Made by a program: the position numbers and the translations under genes
Shown here: positions 14,017 through 31,109 of the stretch, piece by piece
Numbering within the stretch: position 1 is the first letter of the stretch
Layout of the letters: every line of letters begins with the position of its first letter
The notes under the pieces: model-generated
The model's database searches: none
What the model was told of the DNA's origin: nothing
The model's input: the letters and a program-made list of their open reading frames with translations, nothing else
Source of the DNA: Geotalea uraniireducens Rf4
Lineage (GTDB): Bacteria > Desulfobacterota > Desulfuromonadia > Geobacterales > Geobacteraceae
Direction of reading: 5' to 3'
DNA length: 32,000 nucleotides
Assembly (NCBI RefSeq): GCF_000016745.1
Contig: NC_009483.1
Coordinates: 4,740,001-4,772,000 of the forward strand

Positions 14017-14517
14017 TCATCCGGCCGGCGGGACGCTTTTCTCCGGCTGCCTTTCCAGGCGCTGCAGGCCGGACTGTTTTTTCTCAGAGGTTTCGAAAAA
14101 CGGGTGACGGGTCGTGTACTTTTCCCCTTCGATAACGATCTGCCTGGCAATGAGCCGCTCCGGGTTGAGGACGATCGGACCCCGGAGGTTCACCGTGATG
14201 TCTCCGGGCTCAGGGGCCATGGTGACGACCAGGAGAAAGATCGCCTCCGATCGCTCGCTGAGTTCCAGCGCCCTGCACTCTTCCGCAGTGAGGGCAAACG
14301 TGTAGCCGGGAGCGCAGTTCTTGGCGTCGGCAACGACAAATGCCAGGTCAGGGTTGTCCACGGCCTGTAGCCAGCAAAACGGCCCGAGGTTCTCCGGCGT
14401 GAGGAGAATGAAACGTTTTTCGACAAAGCCGAGCATACCCTCGGGCATGTGAATGACCTTGCCTTCTTCAATATCCAGTTCACCGAAACGTGTGGTGGTC
14501 ACTTTCACGACGCTCAC
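14017..14517 (-). CDS. fliW: Flagellar assembly factor FliW (CsrA antagonist)
   Basis: TTRFGELDIEEGKVIHMPEGMLGFVEKRFILLTPENLGPFCWLQAVDNPDLAFVVADA is the typical FliW fold signature. The GTG start overlaps the csrA stop (GTGA). Confidence 0.9.
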   Translation of the reverse strand: MSVVKVTTTRFGELDIEEGKVIHMPEGMLGFVEKRFILLTPENLGPFCWLQAVDNPDLAFVVADAKNCAPGYTFALTAEECRALELSERSEAIFLLVVTMAPEPGDITVNLRGPIVLNPERLIARQIVIEGEKYTTRHPFFETSEKKQSGLQRLERQPEKSVPPAG

Positions 14518-18004: not shown

Positions 18005-18367
18005 TCAGTAAACATTTTTTAAACCGCCATTTTCAGGTTCAACTTTTTTGTCCTGCCGTACCAGTTGCTTTTCGATCATCCGGGCCAACCCCACGCCGCC
18101 GCTGTCGACAACACCCTTTGCATATTCCTGATCCAGAAGAGACTGGTAAACTTCTTCACCATGCCCCCCCCCGGTCAGTTTGTCCTTGCCGACCGTTTCC
18201 CGCATGGACTTGAGCATCATGCCGACAAACATGACTTCAAACTCGCGGGCCACTTTTTTGGCAGCCGCCTTCTCCTTTTCGGCAGATTGCGGCTGAAACT
18301 TTAGCGATTGCCGTAATTTCACATCCTCAACAGGCATGGCCGTCACCGGCGTTGTGCTAACATCCAT
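18005..18367 (-). CDS. flgJ: Rod-binding protein (FlgJ N-terminal domain only; no muramidase domain)
   Basis: Track ORF 18005..18415. The first 16 codons are read-through of the heptad array, so I prefer ATG 18367 (MDVSTTPV...). FEVMFVGMMLKSMRETV...EVYQSLLDQEYAK is the rod-binding motif. Confidence 0.75.
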   Translation of the reverse strand: MDVSTTPVTAMPVEDVKLRQSLKFQPQSAEKEKAAAKKVAREFEVMFVGMMLKSMRETVGKDKLTGGGHGEEVYQSLLDQEYAKGVVDSGGVGLARMIEKQLVRQDKKVEPENGGLKNVY

Positions 18368-18376
18368 ATAATTCCC

Positions 18377-18459
18377 CCACCGACCACCGACCACCGACCA
18401 CCGACCACCGACCACCGACCACCGTCTGCCGTCTGCCGTCTGCCGTCTGCCGTCTGCCG
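18377..18459. repeat. Heptanucleotide tandem arrays (CCACCGA)x7 then (TCTGCCG)x5, filling the flgI-flgJ spacer
   Basis: Read directly: 18377-18424 holds 6 perfect copies plus one 6/7 copy, and 18425-18459 holds 5 perfect copies. In mRNA sense this is (CGGCAGA)5(CGGUGGU)7. Confidence 0.95.
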
Positions 18460-18465
18460 ACCGCC

Positions 18466-19572
18466 CTAAATGACCATCAATTCGGCATTCAGCGCACCCG
18501 CCGCCTTGATCGCCTGCATGATGCCGATCAGGTCGCGGGGGGTTACGCCCAGGGCATTGAGCGCCCGTACCACGTCGCCGATGTTCGCACCCTGCTGCAA
18601 AATCGCCAGGCTGCCCCGGTCCTCGGTTACCTTGATCGATGTACGCGGCACCACTTTTGTTTCGCCCGTGCTGCTAAACGGTGCGGGCTGGGAAACCCGC
18701 GGCGTTTCCTTGACGTAGAGGGTGAGGTTGCCGTGGGAAACCGCCACCGTGGAGATACGCACGTTCTCGCCGATGACTATCGTGCCGGTCCGTTCATTGA
18801 GGACCACCCTGGCCATGACATCCGGGGTCACCTCAAGCCGCTCCAGCGCCGCCACGAACTCCACCGTTTTTCCCTGATAGTCATCGGGAATGGCGAGTTG
18901 CACGGAACCGGGATCGGTCAGGGACGCCACCGTCATCTTGAATTTATTGTTGATGACCGCCGCCACCCGTGACGCTGTAGTGAAGTCCGGCTGGTGAAGA
19001 TTCAGCCTCAGCTGGCTTCGACCAGCCAGTACATTGGGGAGCTCCCGCTCGACAAGGGCTCCGCCCGGCACCCGGCCGGCGGTCGGATGATTCTTCTGCA
19101 CCGATGCCGCCTGGCCGCCATAGGAGAAAGAGTTGGTAAGCACCCCTCCCTGTGCCACCGCATAGATTTGGCTGTCGGCACCTTTCAACGGTGTCATCAG
19201 GAGCGTTCCGCCTGCCAGACTCTTGGAGTCTCCAACCGATGAAACGAGCACGTCGAGACTGTTCCCCTGCTTGGCAAACGGCGGAAGCGCCGCCGTCACC
19301 ATCACGGCAGCCACGTTTTTGACGGTGATGTCGGCACGATTGATCGTTATCCCCATCCGTTCCAGGGTGTTCACCAGGGACTGGACCGGAAACTTGGTCT
19401 GGTCGCTGTCGCCGGTGCCGTTCAGGCCGACGACGAGCCCGTAACCGATGAGCTGGTTCTCCCGCACCCCGTCGAACGCGGCAATATCCTTGATGCGAAC
19501 CGCCAGGGCAAACTGCGGGAGGGCCAGGAGCAGAAACGCAGCAAAAACTATTTTTCGAAAAATACTATTCAT
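18466..19572 (-). CDS. flgI: Flagellar P-ring protein FlgI
   Basis: Signal peptide MNSIFRKIVFAAFLLLALPQFALA, then VRIKDIAAFDGVRENQLIGYGLVVGLNGTGD. The track starts at GTG 19575; ATG 19572 is equally possible. Confidence 0.95.
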   Translation of the reverse strand: MNSIFRKIVFAAFLLLALPQFALAVRIKDIAAFDGVRENQLIGYGLVVGLNGTGDSDQTKFPVQSLVNTLERMGITINRADITVKNVAAVMVTAALPPFAKQGNSLDVLVSSVGDSKSLAGGTLLMTPLKGADSQIYAVAQGGVLTNSFSYGGQAASVQKNHPTAGRVPGGALVERELPNVLAGRSQLRLNLHQPDFTTASRVAAVINNKFKMTVASLTDPGSVQLAIPDDYQGKTVEFVAALERLEVTPDVMARVVLNERTGTIVIGENVRISTVAVSHGNLTLYVKETPRVSQPAPFSSTGETKVVPRTSIKVTEDRGSLAILQQGANIGDVVRALNALGVTPRDLIGIMQAIKAAGALNAELMVI

Positions 19573-19635
19573 CACCCTTCACCCTTCACCCTTCACCCTT
19601 CACCCTTCCGACCACCGACCACCGACCACCGACCG
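19573..19635. repeat. Heptanucleotide tandem arrays (CACCCTT)x5 then (CCGACCA)x4, in the flgH-flgI spacer and abutting the flgI start
   Basis: Read directly. In mRNA sense this is (UGGUCGG)4(AAGGGUG)5-AUG. CCGACCA is the same cyclic unit, in the same orientation, as the 18377-18424 array. Confidence 0.95.
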
Positions 19636-19657: not shown

Positions 19658-20347
19658 TCAAAACGGCCAGATGGTGTCGAATAACCCCATCAGCCAGCCC
19701 GGTTTCTGCCTGTCGCTGATGATCCCCTTGCCGCTGTAGTTGATCCTCGCATCGGCGACATAGATTGAGTTGACCACGTTATCGGAACTTATGTCCCGGG
19801 GCCGGACCGTGCCGGTCAGGACAATGACCTGATCCTCATTGTTGACCTTGACGTTGCGCTTTCCTTCGATGAGGAGGTTGCCGTTGCCAAGCACATCAAC
19901 CACCTTGGCGGTAATGGTTGCATTCAGGTTCTCTTGCCTGGTCGTTTTCCCGCTGCCGTCGAACTTTGAATCAAAACTGGCGCTGATCAGCTTATTCAGA
20001 TCCATCCAGTTTTTTATCCCGGTCACGTTTGTCTCAAGCCCCAGCAGATTGGGAATACCGGCAGATATGCTGCTGCCGCGCGTAGTACCGGTGGTCGCCT
20101 GCTTGCTGGCGCTCGACTGCTCATTGATCACCACCGTTACGGTGTCACCGCGCTTGCGTGCCTTGAAATCATCGGCAAAACCGCTGGAGGAATCCTGCCA
20201 GATGGAGCCGTTGGCATAGTTCGGCCGCGACGGCTGCAACTGTTCGTCGAATGCCGGTGTCCTCACCTCGGCCGTCCGGATCGAACAGGCGGCGAGGAGC
20301 AGCAAGACGGGGAGCGACATCATTTTTATGCATGTTATGGTTTTCAT
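19658..20347 (-). CDS. flgH: Flagellar L-ring lipoprotein FlgH
   Basis: Lipobox LLLAAC, plus DFKARKRGDTVTVVINEQSSASKQ and LLIEGKRNVKVNNEDQVIVLTGTVRPRDI. Confidence 0.9.
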   Translation of the reverse strand: MKTITCIKMMSLPVLLLLAACSIRTAEVRTPAFDEQLQPSRPNYANGSIWQDSSSGFADDFKARKRGDTVTVVINEQSSASKQATTGTTRGSSISAGIPNLLGLETNVTGIKNWMDLNKLISASFDSKFDGSGKTTRQENLNATITAKVVDVLGNGNLLIEGKRNVKVNNEDQVIVLTGTVRPRDISSDNVVNSIYVADARINYSGKGIISDRQKPGWLMGLFDTIWPF

Positions 20348-20356
20348 ATTCTTCGC

Positions 20357-21073
20357 CTAAAAATCCACCTTGACGGTTGTGGCATCGACCACGCGGGCGG
20401 CAACCTCCTTCTGTGAAGCGAGATTCTGCACCATGACCGTATCCCCTTCCGCCCCCGAGTTTCTTGCCCTGCCGGCGGCGGTTATACGCAGTGCGTCGTT
20501 CTCGACGACGATGGTAACCAGTTGACCGCTCTTGACCAATGAAATTTTCTCCAGGTAATCGGCCCGGATCGGGTTATTGCCCCGGATTGCCGTTCGCACC
20601 CTTTTTCCTACTGCCTCTTCTGCGGTGCGACAGGTCTTTCCCTGCATCTTCGCCAGGTCCCTCTTCTGCACAGCGATGTCACCGTTTCCGATGACCTCGC
20701 CCCGCTCCAGGGGACGCACCGCCACTACCACATCCGCCAGCGCTTCAACCTCGACCTTGACGGAAATGTTCCGTTCGACCCGGTCGTTGACCCTGACGAT
20801 GAGTGCAAGGTTGGCATTTCCCCATCCTTCCCAACGGTCCGGGGCCACCACCTCATAACTGATCGTGCCGGCAGGAAGGGCCATGTCTCCGCTGTAGCCG
20901 ATCTTTTTGACGCTGACATCCAACCCCAGGTTCTCGCTCTTTTGCCGGAGATGGTCGTCCAATACCCGACGGATGTCCGCCTCCTTCACCACTATCTGTC
21001 CCGCCGCGCCGGCGGAGGCGATGAATGCCAGCGCCAGCACCAGCAGCATTCCTGTCTGTAAAATACATTTCAT
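20357..21073 (-). CDS. flgA: Flagellar P-ring assembly chaperone FlgA
   Basis: Signal peptide, a SAF-like domain, and C-terminal GQLVTIVVENDALRITAAGRARNSGAEGDTVMVQNLASQKEVAARV. Confidence 0.85.
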   Translation of the reverse strand: MKCILQTGMLLVLALAFIASAGAAGQIVVKEADIRRVLDDHLRQKSENLGLDVSVKKIGYSGDMALPAGTISYEVVAPDRWEGWGNANLALIVRVNDRVERNISVKVEVEALADVVVAVRPLERGEVIGNGDIAVQKRDLAKMQGKTCRTAEEAVGKRVRTAIRGNNPIRADYLEKISLVKSGQLVTIVVENDALRITAAGRARNSGAEGDTVMVQNLASQKEVAARVVDATTVKVDF

Positions 21074-21098: not shown

Positions 21099-21887
21099 CT
21101 ATCGTCTCAGGTTGTTGGCCGTCTGGAGCATCTCATCCGCTGCCTGCACAGCCTTGGAGTTTATCTCGTAGGCCCTCTGACCGACGATCATGTTGACCAT
21201 TTCTTCCATGACGCTCACGTTGCTCATCTCCAGGAATCCCTGGCTGAGGGTGCCGATACCGTTTTGACCGGATGTGCCGGTTGTAGCGGCCCCCGAAGAA
21301 TCTGTCGGCTGATAGAGATTATGTCCGAGGCTTGAGAGGCCTGCGGGATTGGAGAAGGTTGCTAGCTGGATGGTGCCGACGCTGGTCGGCGTGTTCTGCC
21401 CCGACTGCATCACGGATACGGTTCCGTCATTCCCCACGGTGATCTTGGTGGCGTTGTTCGGAATTATCACCTCGGGGAGGAGCGGATACCCGTCGGAGTT
21501 CACCATCCGCCCCTGGCTGTCTTTTTTGAAAGAACCGGCCCGGGAATAATTGGTGGAACCGTCCGGCATCTGGATCTGGAAGAACCCCTCCCCCTCGATG
21601 GCCAGGTCCATCTCGTTGCCGGTCTGGGTGATGTTGCCGGCGGTAAAGATCTTGCTGACCGCGGCAGCCTTGGAGCCAAGTCCCACCTGGATGCCGGTCG
21701 GTATCTGGGTGGCGTTTGTGGACGGAGCACCACTGGTCTTCAGGTTCTGGTACATGAGATCCTGGAAATCGGCACGGCTTTTCTTAAAGCCGGTTGTATT
21801 GACGTTGGCGAGATTGTTGGCTACCACATCGATGTTGAGTTGTTGAGCCTGCATACCTGATGCAGCAGTCCATAATGCCCTTATCAT
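21099..21887 (-). CDS. flgG: Flagellar distal rod protein FlgG
   Basis: [47 protein letters not shown] ... [29 protein letters not shown]. Confidence 0.95.
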
Positions 21888-21907
21888 TTCTTACCCCCTT
21901 TAAGATC

Positions 21908-22034
21908 GTTCTATGTTCTATGTTCTACGTTCCAGGTTCAAAGTTCAAAGTTCAAAGTTCAAAGTTCGAAGTTCGAAGTTCGAAGTTCGAAGTTCGAAGT
22001 TCGAAGTTCAAAAGCTAAATCTTAGAACTTAGAA
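21908..22034. repeat. Heptanucleotide tandem array GTTCNNN x15 plus (CTTAGAA)x2, filling the flgF-flgG spacer
   Basis: Read directly. 21908-22012 holds GTTCTATx2, GTTCTAC, GTTCCAG, GTTCAAAx4, GTTCGAAx6 and GTTCAAA. 22021-22034 holds CTTAGAAx2. Confidence 0.95.
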
Positions 22035-22038
22035 CCGT

Positions 22039-22773
22039 CTACAGTTTTCCCAGCTCGTTGGCCGCCTTTGCCGCGACGTCGTCGTAACTCCGTATCACCT
22101 TCTGGCAGGAGTCGAAATATCGGCTCGTTTCTATCATCCGCGCCATTTCCGTGACGACATTGACATTCGAATCCTCAAGGAATCCCTGCTTTACCGACGC
22201 AGTGGTAACGGCTTGTGGCGCAACCTGGGGATCAGCCGGGATAAACAGGCCGTTGCCGATCTTCTCCAGCGCATACGGCTTGGGGAAATCAACGACCTCC
22301 AGGGTCCCCACGGATACGCCATCCACAAGAACCCCTCCCTTGCCGTTTATATCCACTCTGCCGCCGGTAATGGTGATCGGCCCGCGCCCCTGGACCTCAT
22401 AACCGTCGCCCGTCACGAGCTTACCGGAGGCATCTCTCTGAAAACTCCCCTGCCTGGTATACGCCTTTCCCTGGGGGGTGTTCACCACGAAAAAACCATC
22501 GCCGTCCAGCGCCACATCCAACGTATTGCCGGTCTGCTTGAGCGGTCCCGCTGAATAGTTGGTGAAAAACTTCTCGCCGCTGAAAACCGGCAAATCCGTC
22601 AAGTTCCCCGCCGTCAGGGTCGGGTTTTTTGTATTGGCCAGCACGCTCTCGAACTGGAGGCGGTCGCCTTTAAAGCCGGGAGTGTTGGCGTTGGCCAGGT
22701 TGTTCGATATGACTTCCAGCCGCTGCATTGCCGCAAGGCTGCCGGAAAGCGCCGCATACAAACCGCTGTTCAT
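22039..22773 (-). CDS. flgF: Flagellar proximal rod protein FlgF
   Basis: MNSGLYAALSGSLAAMQRLEVISNNLANANTPGFKGDRLQFESV ... GFLEDSNVNVVTEMARMIETSRYFDS. It sits directly upstream of flgG. Confidence 0.85.
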   Translation of the reverse strand: MNSGLYAALSGSLAAMQRLEVISNNLANANTPGFKGDRLQFESVLANTKNPTLTAGNLTDLPVFSGEKFFTNYSAGPLKQTGNTLDVALDGDGFFVVNTPQGKAYTRQGSFQRDASGKLVTGDGYEVQGRGPITITGGRVDINGKGGVLVDGVSVGTLEVVDFPKPYALEKIGNGLFIPADPQVAPQAVTTASVKQGFLEDSNVNVVTEMARMIETSRYFDSCQKVIRSYDDVAAKAANELGKL

Positions 22774-22807: not shown

Positions 22808-23563
22808 TCAAGGCTTATGGAGCTTCATCCTGCCGCGCAGGCGGAGAAGCGCCTGACTGTGCAACTGTGAAATCCGGGATTCGGTCAGGCTCAATACGGA
22901 GCCGATCTCCTTCAGATTCAACTCTTCATAGTAATAGAGAGTTATGACGATGCGCTCCTTTTCCGGCAGACCGTCAATCGCCTCCGCCAGATTTTCAACC
23001 GTTTGCCGCGCTATGAGCTGATTCTGGGGGCTCTCGACACCCTTGTCCTCCAGTACGTCCAGAAGACCCAACGGGCTGCCGTCTTCATCCATCCAGGCAT
23101 CATCGAGGCTCACAAAGGAGAGAAAATGGATCTCCTCGAGAAGGTGGAAATATCCCTCCAGCTCCAGCCCCATGGCGGCAGCGACCTCTTCGCTCGTGGG
23201 ATTTCTGCCGAGGCGCTGCTCCAGGCATGAAAATTCCCGTTCGAGCCTTTTGAATTTGTCCCGGAGGGAGCGGGTAAGCCAGTCCTGTGAACGGAGCTCA
23301 TCCATTATGGTCCCCCTGATCCGCTGCTCGGCAAACGTCTTGAACATAACCCCCCGCGAAGGATCAAAGCGCTCCGCCGCAGAGATCAGCCCGATGACGG
23401 CAGCGCTCCGCAGGTCGTCCCGGTCCAGATGGGGAGGAAGTGCCGACGCTATCCTGTCCACAAGGAATTTAACCAGGGGAAGATGGGAAACAACCAGTTC
23501 ATCCCTGTCGGGAATCACGGCGCGCTGGGCCTCTTGTTCATAAGCCTTAAGAAGACAATTCAT
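22808..23563 (-). CDS. fliA: Flagellar sigma factor FliA (sigma28)
   Basis: Sigma70-family regions 2-4 are present: VVSHLPLVKFLVDRI, FKTFAEQRIRGTIMDELR, LNLKEIGSVLSLTESRISQLHSQALLRLR. The ATG overlaps the flhG stop (ATGA). Confidence 0.9.
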   Translation of the reverse strand: MNCLLKAYEQEAQRAVIPDRDELVVSHLPLVKFLVDRIASALPPHLDRDDLRSAAVIGLISAAERFDPSRGVMFKTFAEQRIRGTIMDELRSQDWLTRSLRDKFKRLEREFSCLEQRLGRNPTSEEVAAAMGLELEGYFHLLEEIHFLSFVSLDDAWMDEDGSPLGLLDVLEDKGVESPQNQLIARQTVENLAEAIDGLPEKERIVITLYYYEELNLKEIGSVLSLTESRISQLHSQALLRLRGRMKLHKP

Positions 23564-24492
23564 ATACTCTCCAATCCTGCGGCGGTCGGGAAATTTTTCC
23601 GGGAGAAAAACTGAATGTTTCCCTTCAGTCTGTTTTCGCCGCCGCTTGCCATAATCTTCCGTGCCAGGGCAGTGAAGCAGCGTGATGCTTTTGCGTTGGG
23701 ATAGAGCTGGCAGACCGGCTTCTGCTGCCTGACAGACTCCCCGACAAGGTCATCGCGCAACACGCACCCCATGTAATCCAAAGAAATATTGAGGAAGCGA
23801 TCTGAGACATTGAAAAGCTTTTCAAAGACGTTGATCGCTTCTTTCTGGTCTCTGGCCATGTTGACCAGGACCTTGAAATGCCGTTCACCGTAACGGGTTG
23901 ACAACAGCTTGATAAGGGCATAGACGTCCGTGATGGAGGTAGGTTCGGGGGAAACGACCACCAGGATTTCACGGGCAGCGACATTGAAATAGGTAACGTT
24001 TTCCGAGATGCCCGCTTCGGTATCGATAATGAAGACATCAAAATTCTCTTCCAGGCGATCCAGCTCATCCAGCAATCTAAGGCGCTCGGGTGTGCCGAGG
24101 CTTGTGTACTCCTGTACCCCCAGACCTGCGGGAACCACCTTGATGCCTCCCGGGGCGGTAATGATGATCTCATCGAGCCGCTTTTCTCCCGAAAGGACAT
24201 GGTTCATGGTAAATTGTGGTCGCAGGCCGAGCAGTATGTCGATGTTGCCGATACCCAGGTCCGCATCGATCACCAGGACCTTTTTACCCATATTGGCCAG
24301 TGTCACGGCCAGATTGACCACCACGTTACTCTTGCCGACCCCCCCCTTGCCGCTGGTGACGGAAATCACACGAATATCGTTGCGCGAGTTTATCCTGCCC
24401 GCGTACAGGCCGGCATCACGTCGGGTCATGTTGACAGAACCGGCCAGCTGCCGCAGGGTATCAGCCTGGTCCCGGCATTTCGTCGAGGTCAT
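23560..24492 (-). CDS. flhG: MinD/ParA-type ATPase FlhG (flagellar number regulator)
   Basis: The real protein starts at ATG 24492 (MTSTKCRDQ...), which overlaps the flhF stop (ATGA). It has the deviant Walker A box VTSGKGGVGKSNVVVNLA. The upstream part of track ORF 23560..25113 is an out-of-frame shadow over flhF. Confidence 0.85.
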   Translation of the reverse strand: MTSTKCRDQADTLRQLAGSVNMTRRDAGLYAGRINSRNDIRVISVTSGKGGVGKSNVVVNLAVTLANMGKKVLVIDADLGIGNIDILLGLRPQFTMNHVLSGEKRLDEIIITAPGGIKVVPAGLGVQEYTSLGTPERLRLLDELDRLEENFDVFIIDTEAGISENVTYFNVAAREILVVVSPEPTSITDVYALIKLLSTRYGERHFKVLVNMARDQKEAINVFEKLFNVSDRFLNISLDYMGCVLRDDLVGESVRQQKPVCQLYPNAKASRCFTALARKIMASGGENRLKGNIQFFSRKNFPTAAGLESI

Positions 24493-25832
24493 CTTTCGCT
24501 CTCCCGCAGAACCAGGTTTGCCAATTTCCGCGCAGTCGCCACTTCGATATCCTCCGGCACCTTCTGGCCGGTGGTAAAATAAGAAAGGGGATATTTGTTG
24601 CGCACCTGCGCATTGACGATGCAGCCGTAGCTTTCGCTTTCGTCCAGCTTGGTGAACAAGAGCCGGGTAATGGGAAGGACACTGAAATTGGCCACGATGT
24701 CGTTCATTTCCCTGTCCCTGGTGGTGGCGGAAATGCAGAGGTAGGTTTCGATGGCGGGGTGCGATTCCAGGTAGACCTTCAATTCTTCCAGTTTCTCCCG
24801 ATCCTTGGGACTTCTCCCGGCCGTGTCGATGAGAATCAGGTCCTTGTCCGCATGCTTTGCCAGGACAGTTTCCAGCTCCTTTGCCGTTGCCGCCACCTCC
24901 AGCGGCACATCCATAATTTTCGAATAGGTCTTGAGCTGCTCGATGGCCCCCACCCTGAAGTTGTCGGTGGTCACCATGGCTACCCGTGCACCCCTGTTGA
25001 GGGCATACATGGCGGCCAGCTTGGCGATGGTGGTGGTCTTGCCCACGCCGGTCGGGCCGACGATGGCCATGATCCGCGCCCCGTTCTTCTTCAGGCGAAG
25101 GGGACCGGAACATTTGATGACGTTGGCAAAGGCATCGACCAGCCGCTCCCTGAGCGCCTCGATCTCTTCGCCCAGCTCGGCCGCAGGCCTGATCAGCTCA
25201 AGGAGGGAATGAATCCCGTCTGCCCCCACCTCTTCCGAGCGAAGTTCCTTTGCAAGCAACTCCAGCGCCTCCTCAGACAGGTCAAAATCATCTGACAGAT
25301 TTTTGACAGAAGTTTCCGGAGCGTTCACTTCGGGAAAGGCGACCGGTTTGGATGCTTTCTGCTCACGGGCGGCAACCGCGTTCAACAGCAGCTTCTTGAT
25401 CTCCTCCATCTCCTCCTTGGCAAAGGTTCTGGGAGTGGACTCCTTCTCCGGTTGAAACGTCCTCACCTCTTCTGCCGGCTTTTCCATCCGGAAAACAGGG
25501 GGGGCACTTTTCTCCGCATCCTTCCTGGCAAGCGTCTCGACCCGTTCCTTCAGTTCCCTCAGTTCCCGGGCCAGGGGAGCCAGCATGGAGTTCTGAAACT
25601 CCTCCTTCGTGCTGAGTTCCCGCTCTGCCCTCTCCCGGTACGGGTTCGGGCGTGACGGCGCCTTCTGCTCCAAAGCCGCAGTCACCGCAAAGTAAGGCTT
25701 GGAAAAGAGCCCCATGATGCCTTTGCGCCGTTCCTTTTTTGAAGAAAGGATCATGGCGTCCAAACCCATTTCGGCCTTAACCATCTTCAAGGCCTCCGAC
25801 ATATCAGCCGCTTGAAATGTTTTAACTAGCAT
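24489..25832 (-). CDS. flhF: SRP-type GTPase FlhF (flagellar placement)
   Basis: MLVKTFQAADMSEALKMVKAEMGLDAMILSSKK N-domain. G-domain motifs GPTGVGKTTTIAKLAA and DTAGRS. It overlaps the flhA end by 11 nt. Confidence 0.9.
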   Translation of the reverse strand: MLVKTFQAADMSEALKMVKAEMGLDAMILSSKKERRKGIMGLFSKPYFAVTAALEQKAPSRPNPYRERAERELSTKEEFQNSMLAPLARELRELKERVETLARKDAEKSAPPVFRMEKPAEEVRTFQPEKESTPRTFAKEEMEEIKKLLLNAVAAREQKASKPVAFPEVNAPETSVKNLSDDFDLSEEALELLAKELRSEEVGADGIHSLLELIRPAAELGEEIEALRERLVDAFANVIKCSGPLRLKKNGARIMAIVGPTGVGKTTTIAKLAAMYALNRGARVAMVTTDNFRVGAIEQLKTYSKIMDVPLEVAATAKELETVLAKHADKDLILIDTAGRSPKDREKLEELKVYLESHPAIETYLCISATTRDREMNDIVANFSVLPITRLLFTKLDESESYGCIVNAQVRNKYPLSYFTTGQKVPEDIEVATARKLANLVLRESER

Positions 25833-27906
25833 TGAGACTTACCACCCCTATAGATTGGATTTTTATACTGGGAGGAATCTCGTTGTGGGAAATAACAGCG
25901 AGATTCGGCATAAAGCGTTCGGTAAGCTTTTTCATATGGCGCCTGACACCGGGCGAAGCGATAAGCACCGGCGCGGTCCCCGTCTGGTCAAATTTCTCGG
26001 CAGACTTGCGGATGCCCAGAATGATGCTCTGGGCCGTATTCGGCTCAATGGCAAGATAGCTCCCCTGTTCGGACATCTGCACTGCATCGGCTATGGTCTC
26101 CTCCACTTCGCGATCGAGTGTAAGAATGCACAAGGTATCGTCTTCCCGCTTGTACTGCTCGACGATGTAGCGCCCCAGGCTCTGGCGGACAAATTCCGTA
26201 AGCGTTTCCGGGTCCTTGGTGACCCCGCCGTAATCGGCAAGGGTTTCAAGGATCGAACGGAGGTCGCGGATCGAGACATTTTCCTTGAGGAGATTCTTGA
26301 CCACCCGGAGGACCGTTCCGAGACTGAGCAGGGAGGGCACCAATTCCTCCACCACTTTGGGGAGGGTCGATGAGAGGCTGTCCAGTAGCTGCTGGAGCTC
26401 CTGGCGGCCGACCAGTTCATGGGCATGCTTCTTGATGATTTCGCTGATATGGGTAGCCAGGATGGTGGTGTTGTCCACCACCGTGTAACCGAATAACTGC
26501 GCCCGCTCCCTGTCTTGCCCCTTGATCCAGATCGCGGGGAGGCCGAATACGGGCTCCGTGGTCCGTGACCCGTCCAGGGCGCCGGTAGCGTTCCCCGCAT
26601 CCATCGCCAGGTACTGCCCGTTCAACTCGCCCCCGCTCACCTTGGCCCCGTTGATGAGGATGTTGTATTCATACGGTTTCAACTGCAGATTGTCGTGGAT
26701 GTGAATGGGGGGGACGATGAAGCCCATCCGCTGGGCATATTGCTTGCGAATCGATCTGATCCGGTCGAGGAGCTCCCCGTTCTGCGACGCGTCCACCATC
26801 GGCACCAGACCGTAACCGACCTCCAGCTCCAGCATGTCGAGAGGCCTGATGGAAGTACTCTGGTCACCCTCTTCCGCCTCCTGGGCAACGACGCCTGCGG
26901 CCTCATCCTCAAGCACTTCCTTTTTCTCCCGCGCCATGCGCCCCAATAGAAACGACACTCCCGAAAGGAGGAAAAAGGCGAAATGGGGCAGGCCGGGAAT
27001 GAGGGCAAAGGCGAACAGTACGCCGGAAGCGACGTAAAATGCTTTCGGATAATTGAGCAACTGGCCGGATATTTCATGGCCGAAATTCTTCTCGTCGGCT
27101 GAACGGGTAACGATGATGCCCGCGGCCGTGGAGATGATAAGCGCCGGAATCTGCGCCACCAGCCCCTCGCCGACGGTCAAAAGGGTATAGTTGCTCAGGG
27201 CGGCGGAAAGCTCCATCCCCTGCTGCCAGACGCCGATGACGAAGCCGCCGACGATATTGACGAGCATGATGAGAATGCCGGCAACCGCATCCCCCCTGAC
27301 GAACTTGCTCGCGCCGTCCATGGAGCCGTAAAAATCCGCTTCGCGGGAAACCTTCGTCCGGCGGGCCTTCGCCTCTTTGTCGTTGATGAGGCCGCTCGAA
27401 AGATCGGCGTCAATGGCCATCTGTTTGCCGGGCATTGCATCAAGGGTGAATCGGGCGGCAACCTCCGCCACCCGCCCGGCGCCCTTGGTGATGACGACGA
27501 AATTGATGATGACGAGGATGAGAAAGATGACCGCTCCGACCACATAATTGCCCCCCACCACAAACAGGCCGAACGCCTTGATGACCGCCCCGGCCGCTTC
27601 TGCCCCCTCGCTGCCGTGCAAAAGGATGAGGCGGGTGGAGGCGATATTGAGCGCCAGGCGAAACAGCGTCGTGATCAGGAGTATGGAAGGAAAAACCGAG
27701 AAATCGAGGGCCTGGATGGTATAGAGGCTGACCAGCAGTATGACCAGGGAGATGGTGATATTCGCAGCGAGAAAGATATCGAGGAAAAAAGCCGGCAGGG
27801 GGATGATCATCAGGGCAAGAATGCCGATTAATGCCACCGCCATGTAAATGTCGGAATTATTCCTGAACGGTTGAACATCGATAACTTCCGCTGCCGGATT
27901 GGCCAT
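25822..27906 (-). CDS. flhA: Flagellar type III export gate protein FlhA
   Basis: 694 aa with N-terminal TM helices, the conserved FTLDAMPGKQMAIDADL motif, and a cytoplasmic C-domain. Confidence 0.95.
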   Translation of the reverse strand: MANPAAEVIDVQPFRNNSDIYMAVALIGILALMIIPLPAFFLDIFLAANITISLVILLVSLYTIQALDFSVFPSILLITTLFRLALNIASTRLILLHGSEGAEAAGAVIKAFGLFVVGGNYVVGAVIFLILVIINFVVITKGAGRVAEVAARFTLDAMPGKQMAIDADLSSGLINDKEAKARRTKVSREADFYGSMDGASKFVRGDAVAGILIMLVNIVGGFVIGVWQQGMELSAALSNYTLLTVGEGLVAQIPALIISTAAGIIVTRSADEKNFGHEISGQLLNYPKAFYVASGVLFAFALIPGLPHFAFFLLSGVSFLLGRMAREKKEVLEDEAAGVVAQEAEEGDQSTSIRPLDMLELEVGYGLVPMVDASQNGELLDRIRSIRKQYAQRMGFIVPPIHIHDNLQLKPYEYNILINGAKVSGGELNGQYLAMDAGNATGALDGSRTTEPVFGLPAIWIKGQDRERAQLFGYTVVDNTTILATHISEIIKKHAHELVGRQELQQLLDSLSSTLPKVVEELVPSLLSLGTVLRVVKNLLKENVSIRDLRSILETLADYGGVTKDPETLTEFVRQSLGRYIVEQYKREDDTLCILTLDREVEETIADAVQMSEQGSYLAIEPNTAQSIILGIRKSAEKFDQTGTAPVLIASPGVRRHMKKLTERFMPNLAVISHNEIPPSIKIQSIGVVSLNAS

Positions 27907-27973: not shown

Positions 27974-28240
27974 GCGACCTCTCTTTAAGCTATGAAGCGG
28001 CGAAAATCCGCGTTGGGTACAAGGAAAGATTTTTTCAGGAGTAAATCTGCGATTTTTAAGGGGATACATAATGGTATAATCAAGAAGCTGACGACGGCAT
28101 TTTGAATAGGGACGGGTCAACATTTTGACCGCATCAGCCAAGTTGGCAGAACAGTTCACAACGTGTCTTTTTTTGTTGATAAAATAGCCGCAAAACTATA
28201 TCTTTCTAGAGTTTTACTACATTATCGGGATGAAGGATCT

Positions 28241-29485
28241 ATGCGCTTACTTATCCAGTTACTGTTCCTGATCATCGCAGCGCTTCTTACGGCATGCACC
28301 AGCATGGTTCCGCGCGAACATCTCCCCTATCCGCTGACCAACGATGAGTTCGGCAAGACGGTCAAGGTGGTTACCGTTCCTTTGCCGGTTATCGCCTCCA
28401 GTCCCAACGAAGGGATTATCTACGGCGGACTTGCCGCCTTCCTCCTGCACAACAGCAAGGACGAGGTCAGCACCCTCCTGGCGCCCCAGGTGAACTACAA
28501 TCAGAACTTCGGCATCACCTCGTCCCTCTTCGGCTCATTCTATCCTTCACCCGACCGGAACTGGGAGTTCAACCTGTCGAAATCGACCAAGGTCAACGAG
28601 GACTATGAGTTGAGGATCCGCGACAAATCGTTTCTGGACAAGAATCTGGAGCTGAACGCCTTTCTTTTCTCCTTTACCGATGGTTCAGCGCGCTTCTTCG
28701 GCTTCCAGTCCACCAGCAGCAAGTCCAATGAAACGAACTACGCCGACCTGGAAAACGGATTCAGTGTTTCTGCCGGCTACCCCCTCTACCGCCGTATCCA
28801 GCTGGTCATCGGCGAGCGCTACAAAAAGGTCGATATCAAGGAGGGGGCCGTCACCAGCGTCCCCTTCATCCGCAGCCGGTTCGACACCACATCCGTCCCC
28901 GGCATCGACGGATTTACCGCCCATGCGCAAAAACTCGCCCTCGTCTATTCCTCCCTCGACTCCCCGACCCTCCCGACCTGGGGGGGGTATGCCAAGGTTT
29001 CCGTGGAAGCCAGCCTCAAGGCCTTCGGCAGCAGCGCCGATTACCGGCATTACGAGGTCGAGGCAAAGGCATATTATCCGCTGGCGAACTCCAGATTCAT
29101 CAGCGTCGCCCGCATCGCCTACAACCAGACCCTCGGCAATGACGTGCCGTTCCTGGAAAGGAGTATCCTCGGAGGGGAAACAACCCTGAGAGGTTACGGC
29201 CGCAACCGCTTCATCGACAGCAGCTATCTGCTCTTGAACCTTGAGGAGAGGATACGGCTGTTCCGCTGGGAAGTATTCAACGTCAGGGCGGACTGGGAGA
29301 TCGCCCCGTTCGTGGACCTGGGATCGGTGATGGAATATCTGAACAAAGCCAGCTCCAAGAGCTTCGAGTTCAATCCCGGCCTCGGCTTCAGGGCGGTGGT
29401 GCGGCCGAACATCGTCGGCAGGGTGGATATCGGTATCGGCAAGGAAGGACCGTCGGTGTTCGTCGGGCTGGGGTATCCGTTTTAA
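28241..29485 (+). CDS. Outer-membrane beta-barrel of the BamA/TamA (D15 surface antigen) type, no obvious POTRA region, with lipoprotein-type signal peptide
   Basis: Track ORF 28163..29485 (GTG). I prefer ATG 28241 (MRLLIQLLFLIIAALLTAC, lipobox L-T-A-C), preceded by GAAGGA. RGYGRNRF...GLGFRAVVRPNIVGRVDIGIG...FVGLGYPF has a terminal aromatic residue, typical of Omp85-family barrels. Confidence 0.65.
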   Translation: MRLLIQLLFLIIAALLTACTSMVPREHLPYPLTNDEFGKTVKVVTVPLPVIASSPNEGIIYGGLAAFLLHNSKDEVSTLLAPQVNYNQNFGITSSLFGSFYPSPDRNWEFNLSKSTKVNEDYELRIRDKSFLDKNLELNAFLFSFTDGSARFFGFQSTSSKSNETNYADLENGFSVSAGYPLYRRIQLVIGERYKKVDIKEGAVTSVPFIRSRFDTTSVPGIDGFTAHAQKLALVYSSLDSPTLPTWGGYAKVSVEASLKAFGSSADYRHYEVEAKAYYPLANSRFISVARIAYNQTLGNDVPFLERSILGGETTLRGYGRNRFIDSSYLLLNLEERIRLFRWEVFNVRADWEIAPFVDLGSVMEYLNKASSKSFEFNPGLGFRAVVRPNIVGRVDIGIGKEGPSVFVGLGYPF

Positions 29486-29488
29486 GGT

Positions 29489-29632
29489 ACGAGGATAAAG
29501 GAACGAGGTCCGAGGGTTATCCTTTATCCTTTGGCCTCGTTCCTTTTTCCTCGATCCTTTTTCCTCGATCCTTTTTCCTCGATCCTTTTTCCTCGTTCCT
29601 TTTTCCTCGCGCCTTTATCCTCGTCGTGCGTC
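29489..29632. repeat. Composite repeat: 14-nt tandem array (CCTCGWTCCTTTTT, about 6 copies at 29535-29618) bracketed by an inverted repeat
   Basis: Read directly. The left arm ACGAGGATAAAGGAACGAGG (29489-29508) is complementary 18/20 to both 29535-29554 and 29605-29624. There is also a local perfect 10-bp hairpin, GGATAAAGGA (29493-29502) with TCCTTTATCC (29520-29529). Confidence 0.9.
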
Positions 29633-29771
29633 CATCCTTTTTTCCCTTCATTGATCAGGCAGCAATCACCACAATCACACAATCGCTTTAATGAAGAGTG
29701 TTTCCGGTGGCCATCTCGGTCAAATTCTGCTATGAATGGCCACATCGTCAACCTATAAACCCGTGGAAACA

Positions 29772-31109
29772 ATGACCAATCTTCAAGAAACCGAAACCGT
29801 TGAGCTGAAGAAATCCACCTCCGAGCTGAAGGAGGGGGTGATCTCCATTGTGGCTATGTTGAACAAGCACCAGCGGGGAGAAGTCTGGTTCGGCATCAGG
29901 AACGACGGCGCAGTAGTCGGTCAGCAGGTTTCCGAAAAGACGCTCCGCGACATCTCCAAGGCGATTGCCGACCACGTTGAGCCGAAAATCTATCCCGTTA
30001 TCGAGCAGTCTGCGGTCGGTTCCAGGCAGTGCATCAGGGTGCAGGTCGAAGGCAAGGAGTATCCTTATTATGCCTATGGCCGGGCGTACATCCGGGTCGG
30101 AGACGAAGACCGGCAGCTGAGCGCCAAGGAGCTTGAAAACCTGATCCTGGGGAAAAACCGTGACCGGCTCCGCTGGGATACGGAGGTCTGCGACAAGGCA
30201 ACCATTGACGATATCGGGCCGGGCAAGCTGAAGTCATTCCTGAAGCTATGCGGGCTCAAGTTCGATACCATCCCCAATTCCCTCGAAAAGCTGAATCTCA
30301 TCAAGGCCGGCAGGCTCCTGAATGCCGCTGTGCTCTGTTTTGCCCGCAAGCCGGAGAAGTTCTTTCCCAACGCCAGGCTGCGTTGTGCCGTGTTCGGGAC
30401 ACTTGACACCACAGTTACCATTGGCATGAAAGACTATTATGGCGATGTCTTTGCCCTGATCAACAAGGCTGAGGAATACATCCTTGAGCATATCAACATC
30501 GGCATGCGGCTGGAGGGGATGCTGCGGGTGGATGTTCCCGAAATCGACCCTGAAGCGTTTCGTGAAGGGATTATCAATGCCTTCTGTCACCGGGACTATC
30601 GGGAGTATGATTCTGTCAACATTGCCATCTTCAAGGATCGGGTGGAGATCAGAAGCCCCGGCCTGCTTTATGGCGGGCTTACCATCGACACTATCAGAAA
30701 GAAGATGGTATCTGCCCGGCGTAATGAGCTGTTGGCGGAGCTGTTCCAGCGCAGTCATCGCATCGAAAAATGGGGCCGAGGCATCAAGATGATCCTGGAG
30801 CGGGAACCGGCTACAGAGTTCGAAGAAGTGGGAACGGTGCAGTTTGTTGCTACGTTCAAAAGAAAGAATGTGGAGGCTTTTCCGTCCATCAGTGTCGGTG
30901 AAACTACCCAGAAAACTACCCAGAAAACTACCCAGAAAATTCTTGAACTGATTGTCAGCAATCCAAGAATCAGCCGTATCGAACTGGCAGCAGAAATCGG
31001 AATTACTGCGGATGGCGTAAAGTATCAGTTGGACAAATTAAGGAAGCAAGGGATTCTAAAACGTATCGGGCCTGATAAGGGCGGGTATTGGGAGATCGTG
31101 AAAGAGTGA
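29772..31109 (+). CDS. AlbA_2 (Schlafen-like) DNA-binding domain + HATPase_c_4-like domain + C-terminal winged-HTH protein (often annotated RecG-like ATP-binding protein / transcriptional regulator)
   Basis: Track ORF 29736..31109. ATG 29772 (MTNLQETETVELKKSTSELKEG...) fits the usual family N-terminus. GEVWFGIRNDGAVVG and AFCHRDY...SPGLLYGGLT...RRNELLAELFQRSHRIEKWGRGI are present. The C-terminal ILELIVSNPRISRIELAAEIGITADGVKYQLDKLRKQGILKRIG is a wHTH. Confidence 0.7.
   Translation: MTNLQETETVELKKSTSELKEGVISIVAMLNKHQRGEVWFGIRNDGAVVGQQVSEKTLRDISKAIADHVEPKIYPVIEQSAVGSRQCIRVQVEGKEYPYYAYGRAYIRVGDEDRQLSAKELENLILGKNRDRLRWDTEVCDKATIDDIGPGKLKSFLKLCGLKFDTIPNSLEKLNLIKAGRLLNAAVLCFARKPEKFFPNARLRCAVFGTLDTTVTIGMKDYYGDVFALINKAEEYILEHINIGMRLEGMLRVDVPEIDPEAFREGIINAFCHRDYREYDSVNIAIFKDRVEIRSPGLLYGGLTIDTIRKKMVSARRNELLAELFQRSHRIEKWGRGIKMILEREPATEFEEVGTVQFVATFKRKNVEAFPSISVGETTQKTTQKTTQKILELIVSNPRISRIELAAEIGITADGVKYQLDKLRKQGILKRIGPDKGGYWEIVKE
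30903..30938 (+). repeat. In-frame 12-nt tandem repeat (ACTACCCAGAAA)x3 encoding TTQK x3 in the linker before the wHTH
   Basis: Read directly from DNA and from the translation (GETTQKTTQKTTQKIL). Confidence 0.9.

Follow-up and report, generated by a model that had tools for sequence, protein, structure and literature searches.

Why is one flagellar gene preceded by five tandem copies of a Shine–Dalgarno (SD)-like heptad, and does it make use of all five? The question is raised by the spacer between flgH and flgI in Geotalea uraniireducens Rf4, which lies within a 32,000-nucleotide (nt) stretch of contig NC_009483.1 (assembly GCF_000016745.1, positions 4,740,001 to 4,772,000), hereafter the window, in whose own numbering coordinates are given unless another contig is named. 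A model reading the letters alone (the original prediction) had proposed that these repeats serve as a ribosome standby or stacking platform, or as a translation initiation region tunable by slippage. The reading we favour, with a probability of roughly 60%, is that the spacer is a slippage-prone, fast-evolving heptanucleotide simple sequence repeat (SSR), in which the units nearest the start codon arose by amplification of the SD of flgI itself.

On the minus strand, the 85-nt gap between the flgH stop codon and the flgI start codon reads TGA-N22-CGGTCGG(TGGTCGG)3(AAGGGTG)5-ATG, and its parts and flanking genes are as follows:

19660-19658, minus strand: TGA stop codon of flgH
19657-19636, minus strand: 5′ part of the gap, 22 nt, ATGGCGGTCGATGGTTTGAAGG, conserved in sister strains
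19635-19608, minus strand: upstream G-rich heptad array, CGGTCGG(TGGTCGG)3
19607-19573, minus strand: (AAGGGTG)5, perfect, directly against the flgI ATG (ends at −1)
19572-19570, minus strand: ATG of flgI
18466-19572, minus strand: flgI, P-ring protein, 368 amino acids (aa) from the ATG at 19572 (Pfam FlgI, E = 2e-145)
19658-20347, minus strand: flgH, L-ring protein, the cistron upstream of flgI (Pfam)

Tandem Repeats Finder reports TCACCCT ×5.3 at 19572-19608 and CCGACCA ×3.9 at 19608-19634, both with 100% matches, which bears out the five AAGGGTG heptads predicted to abut the flgI ATG. The four UGGUCGG units predicted upstream of them are present as four heptads, but the first is CGGTCGG, so that three are perfect and one is a variant. 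The 22-nt segment that precedes them, ATGGCGGTCGATGGTTTGAAGG, looks like a run of decayed heptads, and the sense strand of the gap as a whole is 54% G and 8% C. The alternative GTG at 19575 does sit within the last AAGGGTG heptad, as the open reading frame (ORF) list confirms; the FlgI orthologues of two relatives (L001 and L087; L numbers denote loci in our comparisons) begin at the equivalent of the ATG. Extension of the FlgI N terminus by translated repeats is excluded by an in-frame TGA at −9.

The textbook sequence of the bacterial 16S rRNA tail is GAUCACCUCCUUU, and it was used throughout, the window containing no rRNA. Paired with this canonical tail, AAGGGUGAA gives −8.5 kcal/mol in each 7-nt register, within the range of the SD regions (best upstream 9-mers) of nine neighbouring genes (−5.7 to −11.9 kcal/mol), in agreement with the complementarity claimed for the units at the outset. 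The upstream TGGTCGG array pairs more strongly still, its GGUGGUC being complementary to 16S GAUCACC at −11.9 kcal/mol. Counted from the 3′ end of AAGGG, the units lie 2, 9, 16, 23 and 30 nt from the flgI AUG, exactly the distances predicted; only the penultimate unit, at 9 nt, has a workable spacing (about 5–10 nt), and the last, at 2 nt, is too near. No SD besides the heptad units was found in the flgH–flgI gap. In sister strains a single GGGAAGGGTGAAT(C/T)-ATG stands before flgJ, with the motif 6 nt from the ATG, and because only one copy precedes flgJ there, AAGGGTGA is an ordinary SD variant of the lineage.

Heptad arrays in close strains and relatives

We compared the gap among contigs whose FlgG is identical to that of the window and whose FlgI is 97–100% identical. 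Three alleles were found:

Allele A (window, L081): 4 (Y)GGTCGG + 5 AAGGGTG, 85 nt
Allele B (L088, L091, L092): 7 (Y)GGTCGG + 2 AAGGGTG, 85 nt
Allele C (L087, L089): CGGTGGA (TGGTGGA)6 TGGTGAG AAA, 81 nt

In L087 the (TGGTGGA)7 array is followed by TGGTGAGAAA and AAGGGTG is absent altogether. At 91% identity, L001 has a decayed flgH–flgI gap of 37 nt, ending TGGTGAGGTGTG-ATG. Near-identical strains therefore carry five, two or no AAGGGTG units with a constant SD-to-AUG geometry, as anticipated if the SD survives whenever a heptad is gained or lost, and every allele compared keeps an SD-like unit beside the flgI AUG. The other gaps of the same strains also vary in length (flgF–flgG, 151, 101 or 86 nt; flgI–flgJ, 98, 116 or 110 nt). 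L082, a Logan contig encoding exactly the FlgI of the window, has (CAGACGG)3 in the flgI–flgJ gap against five copies in the window, and this is not a graph collapse of the five-copy allele, because the contig has 31-mers across both flanks. We rejected the breaks of Logan unitigs 29 nt upstream of the ATG as a sign of within-sample heterogeneity; such breaks are expected, since the five-copy array contains a 30-mer twice, which forces a branch in a k = 31 graph. With perfect units arranged head to tail and copy number polymorphic among close strains, the array is a heptanucleotide SSR. Judged by these alleles, such arrays change far faster than the flanking genes, through gain and loss of units together with the substitution of mutated unit types for older ones.

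A scan of the window for perfect arrays (at least three copies, periods 4–12) returned seven; those with period 7 number six and are confined to three gaps of the flgFGAHIJ operon: flgF–flgG, flgH–flgI and flgI–flgJ. The two gaps other than that before flgI are built as follows:

18368-18465, minus strand: flgI–flgJ gap, TAG GGCGGTCGG(CAGACGG)5(TGGTCGG)6 TGGGGGAATTAT-ATG
21888-22038, minus strand: flgF–flgG gap, (GTTCTAA)2 ... (ACTTCGA)7(ACTTTGA)4 ... (NTAGAAC)3, then a separate SD, AAAGGGGGT

The flgI–flgJ gap has its lead-in and the TGGTCGG unit in common with the flgH–flgI gap, and within the window TGGTCGG arrays occur in these two gaps only. Elsewhere too, the flgH–flgI and flgI–flgJ gaps of one genome have a post-stop lead-in in common, and their units differ between genomes.

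To place these arrays we used a FlgI search, which gave 80 genome loci (from Geotalea, Geomonas, Geobacter and other Desulfuromonadales; best FlgI identity 91%) and 80 metagenome loci. Perfect arrays among the relatives have period 7 in 13 cases out of 14. A strict scan for degenerate repeats over the 80 genome loci and the window (81 sources, 0.83 Mb) found 27 tracts of period 7, 13 at the 14-nt harmonic and at most two at any other lag, and 24 of the 27 fall in the same three gaps; shuffled sequence, about 0.83 Mb of it, was free of tandem tracts whatever the lag. Under relaxed criteria, 61 of 410 delimited gaps contained a period-7 tract, 14 a tract at lag 6 and 6 one at lag 9, other lags being at background, and no shuffled gap contained a period-7 tract. 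On these sequence comparisons, a class of period-7 arrays occupies the flgF–flgG, flgH–flgI and flgI–flgJ gaps in many Geobacteraceae. Absence of repeats and of variation from orthologous loci had been named as the outcome that would tell against the prediction; the flgI upstream regions of relatives contain both.

The units themselves differ from lineage to lineage. The flgF–flgG gaps of relatives mostly consist of a GTTCNNN 5′ arm and an NNNGAAC 3′ arm, and further units include AAAACCT ×18–19, GTGAAAA ×12 and AAGGATT. GTGA-containing heptads occur in the flgH–flgI gap of L012, L021, L025, L036 and L118, that of L012 reading AAGCGGTG AAGGGTG AACAGTG AACGGTG; in other lineages the same gap holds ACGTTCT/GAACGTT units, with practically no anti-SD complementarity. 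Many orthologous units, such as the GTTC/GAAC and AAAACCT types, have an anti-SD ΔG of about 0, and the idea that the arrays in general pair with the anti-SD was rejected on that ground. What the arrays of the family have in common is period 7, not SD-likeness. Five stacked SDs are not conserved and make up just one of the six perfect arrays in the three gaps, which speaks against a need for a standby or stacking platform; multiplicity of the SD as a device fares no better, many arrays of the family in the same gaps being without anti-SD complementarity.

Origin of the array and rival readings

How would five SDs have arisen? We propose that slipped-strand amplification of a unit bearing the lineage's SD motif, AAGGGTGA, would have given the start-proximal array. 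The copy ending 9 nt before the AUG is most likely the flgI ribosome-binding site (RBS), and the extra copies upstream are probably dispensable and close to neutral, altering translation modestly if at all. Each unit supplies both SD and spacer, and the last one meets the AUG directly; adding or losing copies therefore leaves the SD-to-AUG geometry intact, and such changes would be tolerated and accumulate. Multiplicity is not required, since natural alleles carry five, two or no copies. Period 7 is common and many units lack anti-SD pairing, so the common denominator is a heptanucleotide-repeat process, and the multiplicity of SDs at flgI seems incidental to the amplification of a unit that happened to bear one.

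Several points weigh against this account. The word dispensable is drawn from natural alleles with two or no copies only, the pairing energies were computed with the canonical 16S tail and not the organism's own, and plain slippage leaves the exclusive preference for period 7 unexplained. Alleles A and B, very unlike in composition, are both exactly 85 nt long; chance, conversion of units or a selected spacer length could each account for this. Within each genome the flgH–flgI and flgI–flgJ gaps hold one unit family (the window, L012 and G. metallireducens); since these arrays stand 1.2 kb apart, they have evolved in concert, and a common trans-acting reader, rather than slippage, could be the cause. 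The bias of the sense strand towards G and away from C may itself be selected. Period 7, the equal length of the 85-nt alleles and the common unit family keep functional readings alive.

The standby model is reportedly de Smit and van Duin's. Applied to flgI, it would have the extra SD-like and GGUGGUC units hold a 30S subunit, or a 70S ribosome terminating at flgH, near the flgI start, by a multi-SD standby or ratchet, with more re-initiation as the consequence and copy number tuning FlgI relative to FlgH. We consider this unlikely, even though anti-SD pairing recurs in every 7-nt register of both arrays (−8.5 kcal/mol, and −11.9 kcal/mol upstream, with the canonical tail) and the gap offers no other SD. 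The G-rich, C-poor array may also be single-stranded, since a search of the mRNA strand of the window for a C-rich partner gave only chance-level three-mismatch matches and no long-range duplex. Tails of 16–18 nt have the maximal standby effect (Sterk 2018, PMC5934652), a start that is already occupied still allows a second 30S to load upstream of it (Andreeva 2018, PMC5924895), and the GTGA-containing heptads of L012, L021, L025, L036 and L118 occupy the same gap. Yet AAGGGTG varies between five, two and no copies among strains whose FlgI is at least 97% identical, anti-SD complementarity is about zero in many orthologous arrays, and known standby sites use S1 on unstructured, typically non-SD sequence beside a structured RBS (PMC5934652, PMC5924895). 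No stable RBS structure is predicted at flgI, a possible G-quadruplex (G4) aside, and strong SD-like sites upstream could equally be decoys. That G4 might instead be the functional element. At least four GGG tracts at 4-nt spacing, (GGGUGAA)n, would fold into a G4, either of RNA with three tiers or of DNA on the non-template strand, that sequesters the SD and start and lowers FlgI translation, and slippage over the four-tract threshold would toggle G4 competence. With G4 folding switched on, the minimum free energy of the window leader is −36.9 kcal/mol against −18.2 kcal/mol without it, and in the predicted fold four of the five GGG tracts (4-nt loops) build a three-tier G4 over the SD region, with a two-tier G4 in the TGGTCGG array; without G4 the leader is mostly unpaired, save for a weak stem, rich in G–U and A–U pairs, that encloses the flgI AUG. 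The (GGGACCR)4 elements of the flgH–flgI region in G. metallireducens have exactly four sense-strand G3 tracts from the stop codon (PMC2700814), and Rehm et al. found that G-rich heptamers elsewhere adopt G4 in vitro, occur between co-oriented ORFs and favour runs of four units, citing in one passage a G4 at the RBS as a bacterial translational repressor (Rehm 2015, PMC4692102). The chance we allow a G4 switch is nevertheless similarly small: the leader fold has a z-score of only −1.7 against shuffles, so base composition accounts for much of its energy, allele B has only two GGG tracts, no G4 is predicted for the L001 leader, the heptads of many lineages have no G runs, and the repeats of Rehm et al. 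are antisense when upstream of ORFs, opposite to the flgI array (PMC4692102).

A protein that reads RNA or single-stranded DNA in a 7-nt register, with a cold-shock-domain protein, S1 or another regulator as candidates, would explain other features. Such a factor would bind along the intercistronic spacers and fix how strongly the ring and rod cistrons are translated relative to one another, or their relative stability, the unit co-evolving with it; the period is kept while the sequence changes, neighbouring gaps of one genome (the window, L012, G. metallireducens) have one unit family, two different alleles are equal in length, and S1, Csp (cold-shock protein) or CsrA-type readers have been proposed for TAACTGA heptamers (MacGregor 2015, PMC4679880). 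FliW, the partner of CsrA, is encoded in the window, but we rejected CsrA as reader of the flgI array, which has a single GGA motif, at the junction CGGAAGG. Units differ even where FlgI is at least 97% identical (TGGTCGG against TGGTGGA), too fast for co-evolution with a protein, and three unrelated units stand together in one operon, all of which makes a dedicated reader very unlikely. The broadest functional reading, which we hold to be distinctly improbable when taken jointly, is that period-7 arrays are conserved intercistronic regulators in the flagellar rod and ring operon of Geobacteraceae. The heptad register would be read by the anti-SD tail, by an RNA-binding protein with a 7-nt footprint or through formation of a G4 or hairpin, it would set the output of FlgG : FlgH : FlgI : FlgJ, and slippage would tune it, so that flagellar assembly could be adjusted heritably and reversibly and this free-living subsurface bacterium would have a contingency locus here; selection would then have left its mark in the equal 85-nt spacers and in the concerted evolution of the neighbouring gaps. 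That the array or its copy number stems from repeat mis-assembly or a sequencing artefact is scarcely credible. Logan unitigs do break within the array, but by our own reasoning this is what a 30-mer present twice entails at k = 31, and the independent Logan contig L081 spans an identical 4 + 5 array, while long metagenome contigs (87–372 kb) have related arrays at the same place.

What the locus would mean depends on which of these holds. If the slippage is merely tolerated, flgI is an example of an RBS embedded in a repeat in such a way that hypermutability carries no cost. If copy number alters translation, the arrays would be contingency loci for the stoichiometry of the flagellar rings in environmental metal-reducing bacteria, and a natural test bed for multi-SD and standby effects, for RNA G4 at the RBS and for the over-representation of heptamers in bacteria. 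To our knowledge, environmental metal-reducing bacteria are not a group known for phase variation.

Operon and window context

The minus strand of the window carries a flagellar operon, its gene identities assigned by Pfam:

25822-27906, minus strand: FHIPEP/FlhA
23560-25113, minus strand: ParA/MinD-type ATPase
22808-23563, minus strand: sigma-70-family factor, in the fliA position
22039-22773, minus strand: flgF
21099-21887, minus strand: flgG
20357-21073, minus strand: flgA
18005-18367, minus strand: flgJ, a rod-binding FlgJ-like gene
next in minus-strand order after flgJ: flgM, flgN and flgK
minus strand, after flgK: a flagellin-family gene (flgL position), FliW, flagellin and FliD

The presence of a FliW gene within the cluster (14017-14517, minus strand) implies a CsrA–FliW flagellin checkpoint. 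A promoter and terminator scan of 17.9–23.7 kb found nothing promoter-like or terminator-like on the coding strand of the gaps, so the arrays do not serve as promoters or terminators in any obvious way. An Rfam 15 scan of 15–32 kb (E ≤ 1) gave no family at gathering score, the only matches, well short of it, being miRNA-hairpin look-alikes at 21940-22038 and 29482-29561.

For the flgF–flgG gap the predicted fold is a long hairpin that keeps the heptad register (−43.5 kcal/mol; z = −4.3; none of 200 shuffles as stable). Its heptads form two arms, GTTCNNN on the 5′ side and NNNGAAC on the 3′ side, between which the window has the quasi-palindromic ACTTCGA; the same two-arm arrangement, with other units and copy numbers, is present in L002, L005, L016-L018, L027, L041, L100 and L113 (Geomonas, Geotalea). 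In the flgI–flgJ gap of more distant relatives (L006, L013, L019, L022, L023, L029, L032-L034, L037, L040, L043 and L049) there is instead a conserved TTGAACA-N-TGTTCAA palindrome followed by CTAAAGTTT-N12-TCGATA(A/G)G. The latter resembles what we take to be the consensus of a sigma-28 (FliA) promoter, and the presence of heptads in place of this promoter-like element in the window lineage implies a different transcriptional organisation of flgJ and flgM.

Heptad arrays can make or remove alternative start codons. The ORF list starts flgJ at a GTG at 18415, within the repeat, and orthologues point to the ATG at 18367 as the true start; in L087 (5294-5312 of that contig), (TGGTGGA)n makes in-frame upstream ATGs, and FlgI is called six codons early (374 against 368 aa). 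Both cases are a caution for gene calling, where starts may be placed wrongly within heptad arrays.

Outside the operon, an array of about seven copies of a 14-nt (2 × 7) unit, CGAGGAAAAAGGAT on the minus strand, occupies 29482-29623 of the window, between an Omp85-like gene (28163-29485, plus strand) and a Schlafen/AlbA_2 gene (29736-31109, plus strand), and an inverted copy beside it forms a hairpin immediately after the Omp85 stop codon. Heptad-based arrays in this genome therefore extend beyond the flagellar operon. The sole perfect array of the window with a period other than 7 is a 12-nt repeat, AAACTACCCAGA ×3.25, at 30901-30939, in frame in the AlbA_2/HATPase_c_4/HTH gene.

Comparison with known systems

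Among the matches listed by a full-text literature search, no paper contained the phrases 'tandem', 'multiple' or 'repeated Shine-Dalgarno', and the closest parallels come from repeats described under other names. Standby sites are defined functionally, by pre-loading of 30S subunits and dependence on S1, as single-stranded loading platforms usually beside a structured RBS and not as repeats of an SD (Sterk 2018, PMC5934652; Andreeva 2018, PMC5924895); what the flgI leader may have in common with them is a possibly single-stranded stretch of more than 16–18 nt directly upstream of the RBS.

TAACTGA heptamers lie at start codons without a canonical RBS in marine Beggiatoaceae, cyanobacteria and Bacteroidetes, and a translational role was suggested for them (MacGregor 2015, PMC4679880). 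As at flgI, these are forward heptamers near the start codon, over the expected position of the RBS, with no other canonical SD, and they come in two to six copies. They lack the complementarity to 16S rRNA that AAGGGTG has, however, and a single unit recurs at 169 loci, whereas the window has several units in one operon.

In Haemophilus influenzae, the (ATCTTTC)n repeat of hmw1A is transcribed, and a hairpin cut by RNase III sets expression (Rapun-Araiz 2025, PMC12721329). Like the flgI array, it is a heptanucleotide SSR that is transcribed, lies upstream of a start codon and varies in copy number; in hmw1A, expression was shown by experiment to be inversely proportional to repeat number. It is the flgF–flgG array that resembles hmw in its long hairpin in heptad register, predicted here, whereas the flgI array has no predicted hairpin and no pairing partner on the mRNA strand of the window.

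Heptamers of the type G3N4 (GGGNATC and GGGGAYT of Xanthomonas and Nostoc) prefer four units between co-oriented ORFs, and the G-rich GGGNATC forms G4 in vitro (Rehm 2015, PMC4692102). A passage of the same paper cites heptamers as an over-represented class of long SSR in bacteria, noted in 2007. The flgI array resembles these repeats in having G3N4 heptads between co-oriented ORFs, in variable number and, from four units upwards, predicted here to be G4-capable. It differs in orientation, the repeats of Rehm et al. upstream of ORFs being preferentially antisense, whereas at flgI the G-rich strand is the mRNA and the array stands at the RBS.

The nearest precedent is in the same family and in the same operon. 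In G. metallireducens, Aklujkar et al. annotated GGGACCR repeats as 'four heptanucleotide repeat' elements, 49 in all, and took them for putative regulatory RNA elements; of these, Gmet_H404 lies between flgH and flgI, and H405 and H406 lie between flgI and a flgJ-like gene (Aklujkar 2009, PMC2700814, Table S4); H404 and H405 begin at stop codons (Fig. S2). These elements and the arrays of the window are alike in being tandem heptads, G-rich on the sense strand, that occupy the same two gaps and begin at, or close to, the stop codon of the upstream gene. They differ in unit (GGGACCR, as GGGACCG/GGACCGG, against TGGTCGG, AAGGGTG and CAGACGG), in copy number (fixed at about four against 4–6) and in distribution, the 49 copies being spread genome-wide, some of them intragenic and often in inverted pairs. 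Nor do the G. metallireducens elements abut a start codon or contain an SD motif, both of which the flgI array does. Heptads at the flgH–flgI and flgI–flgJ junctions have been on record since 2009, with another unit.

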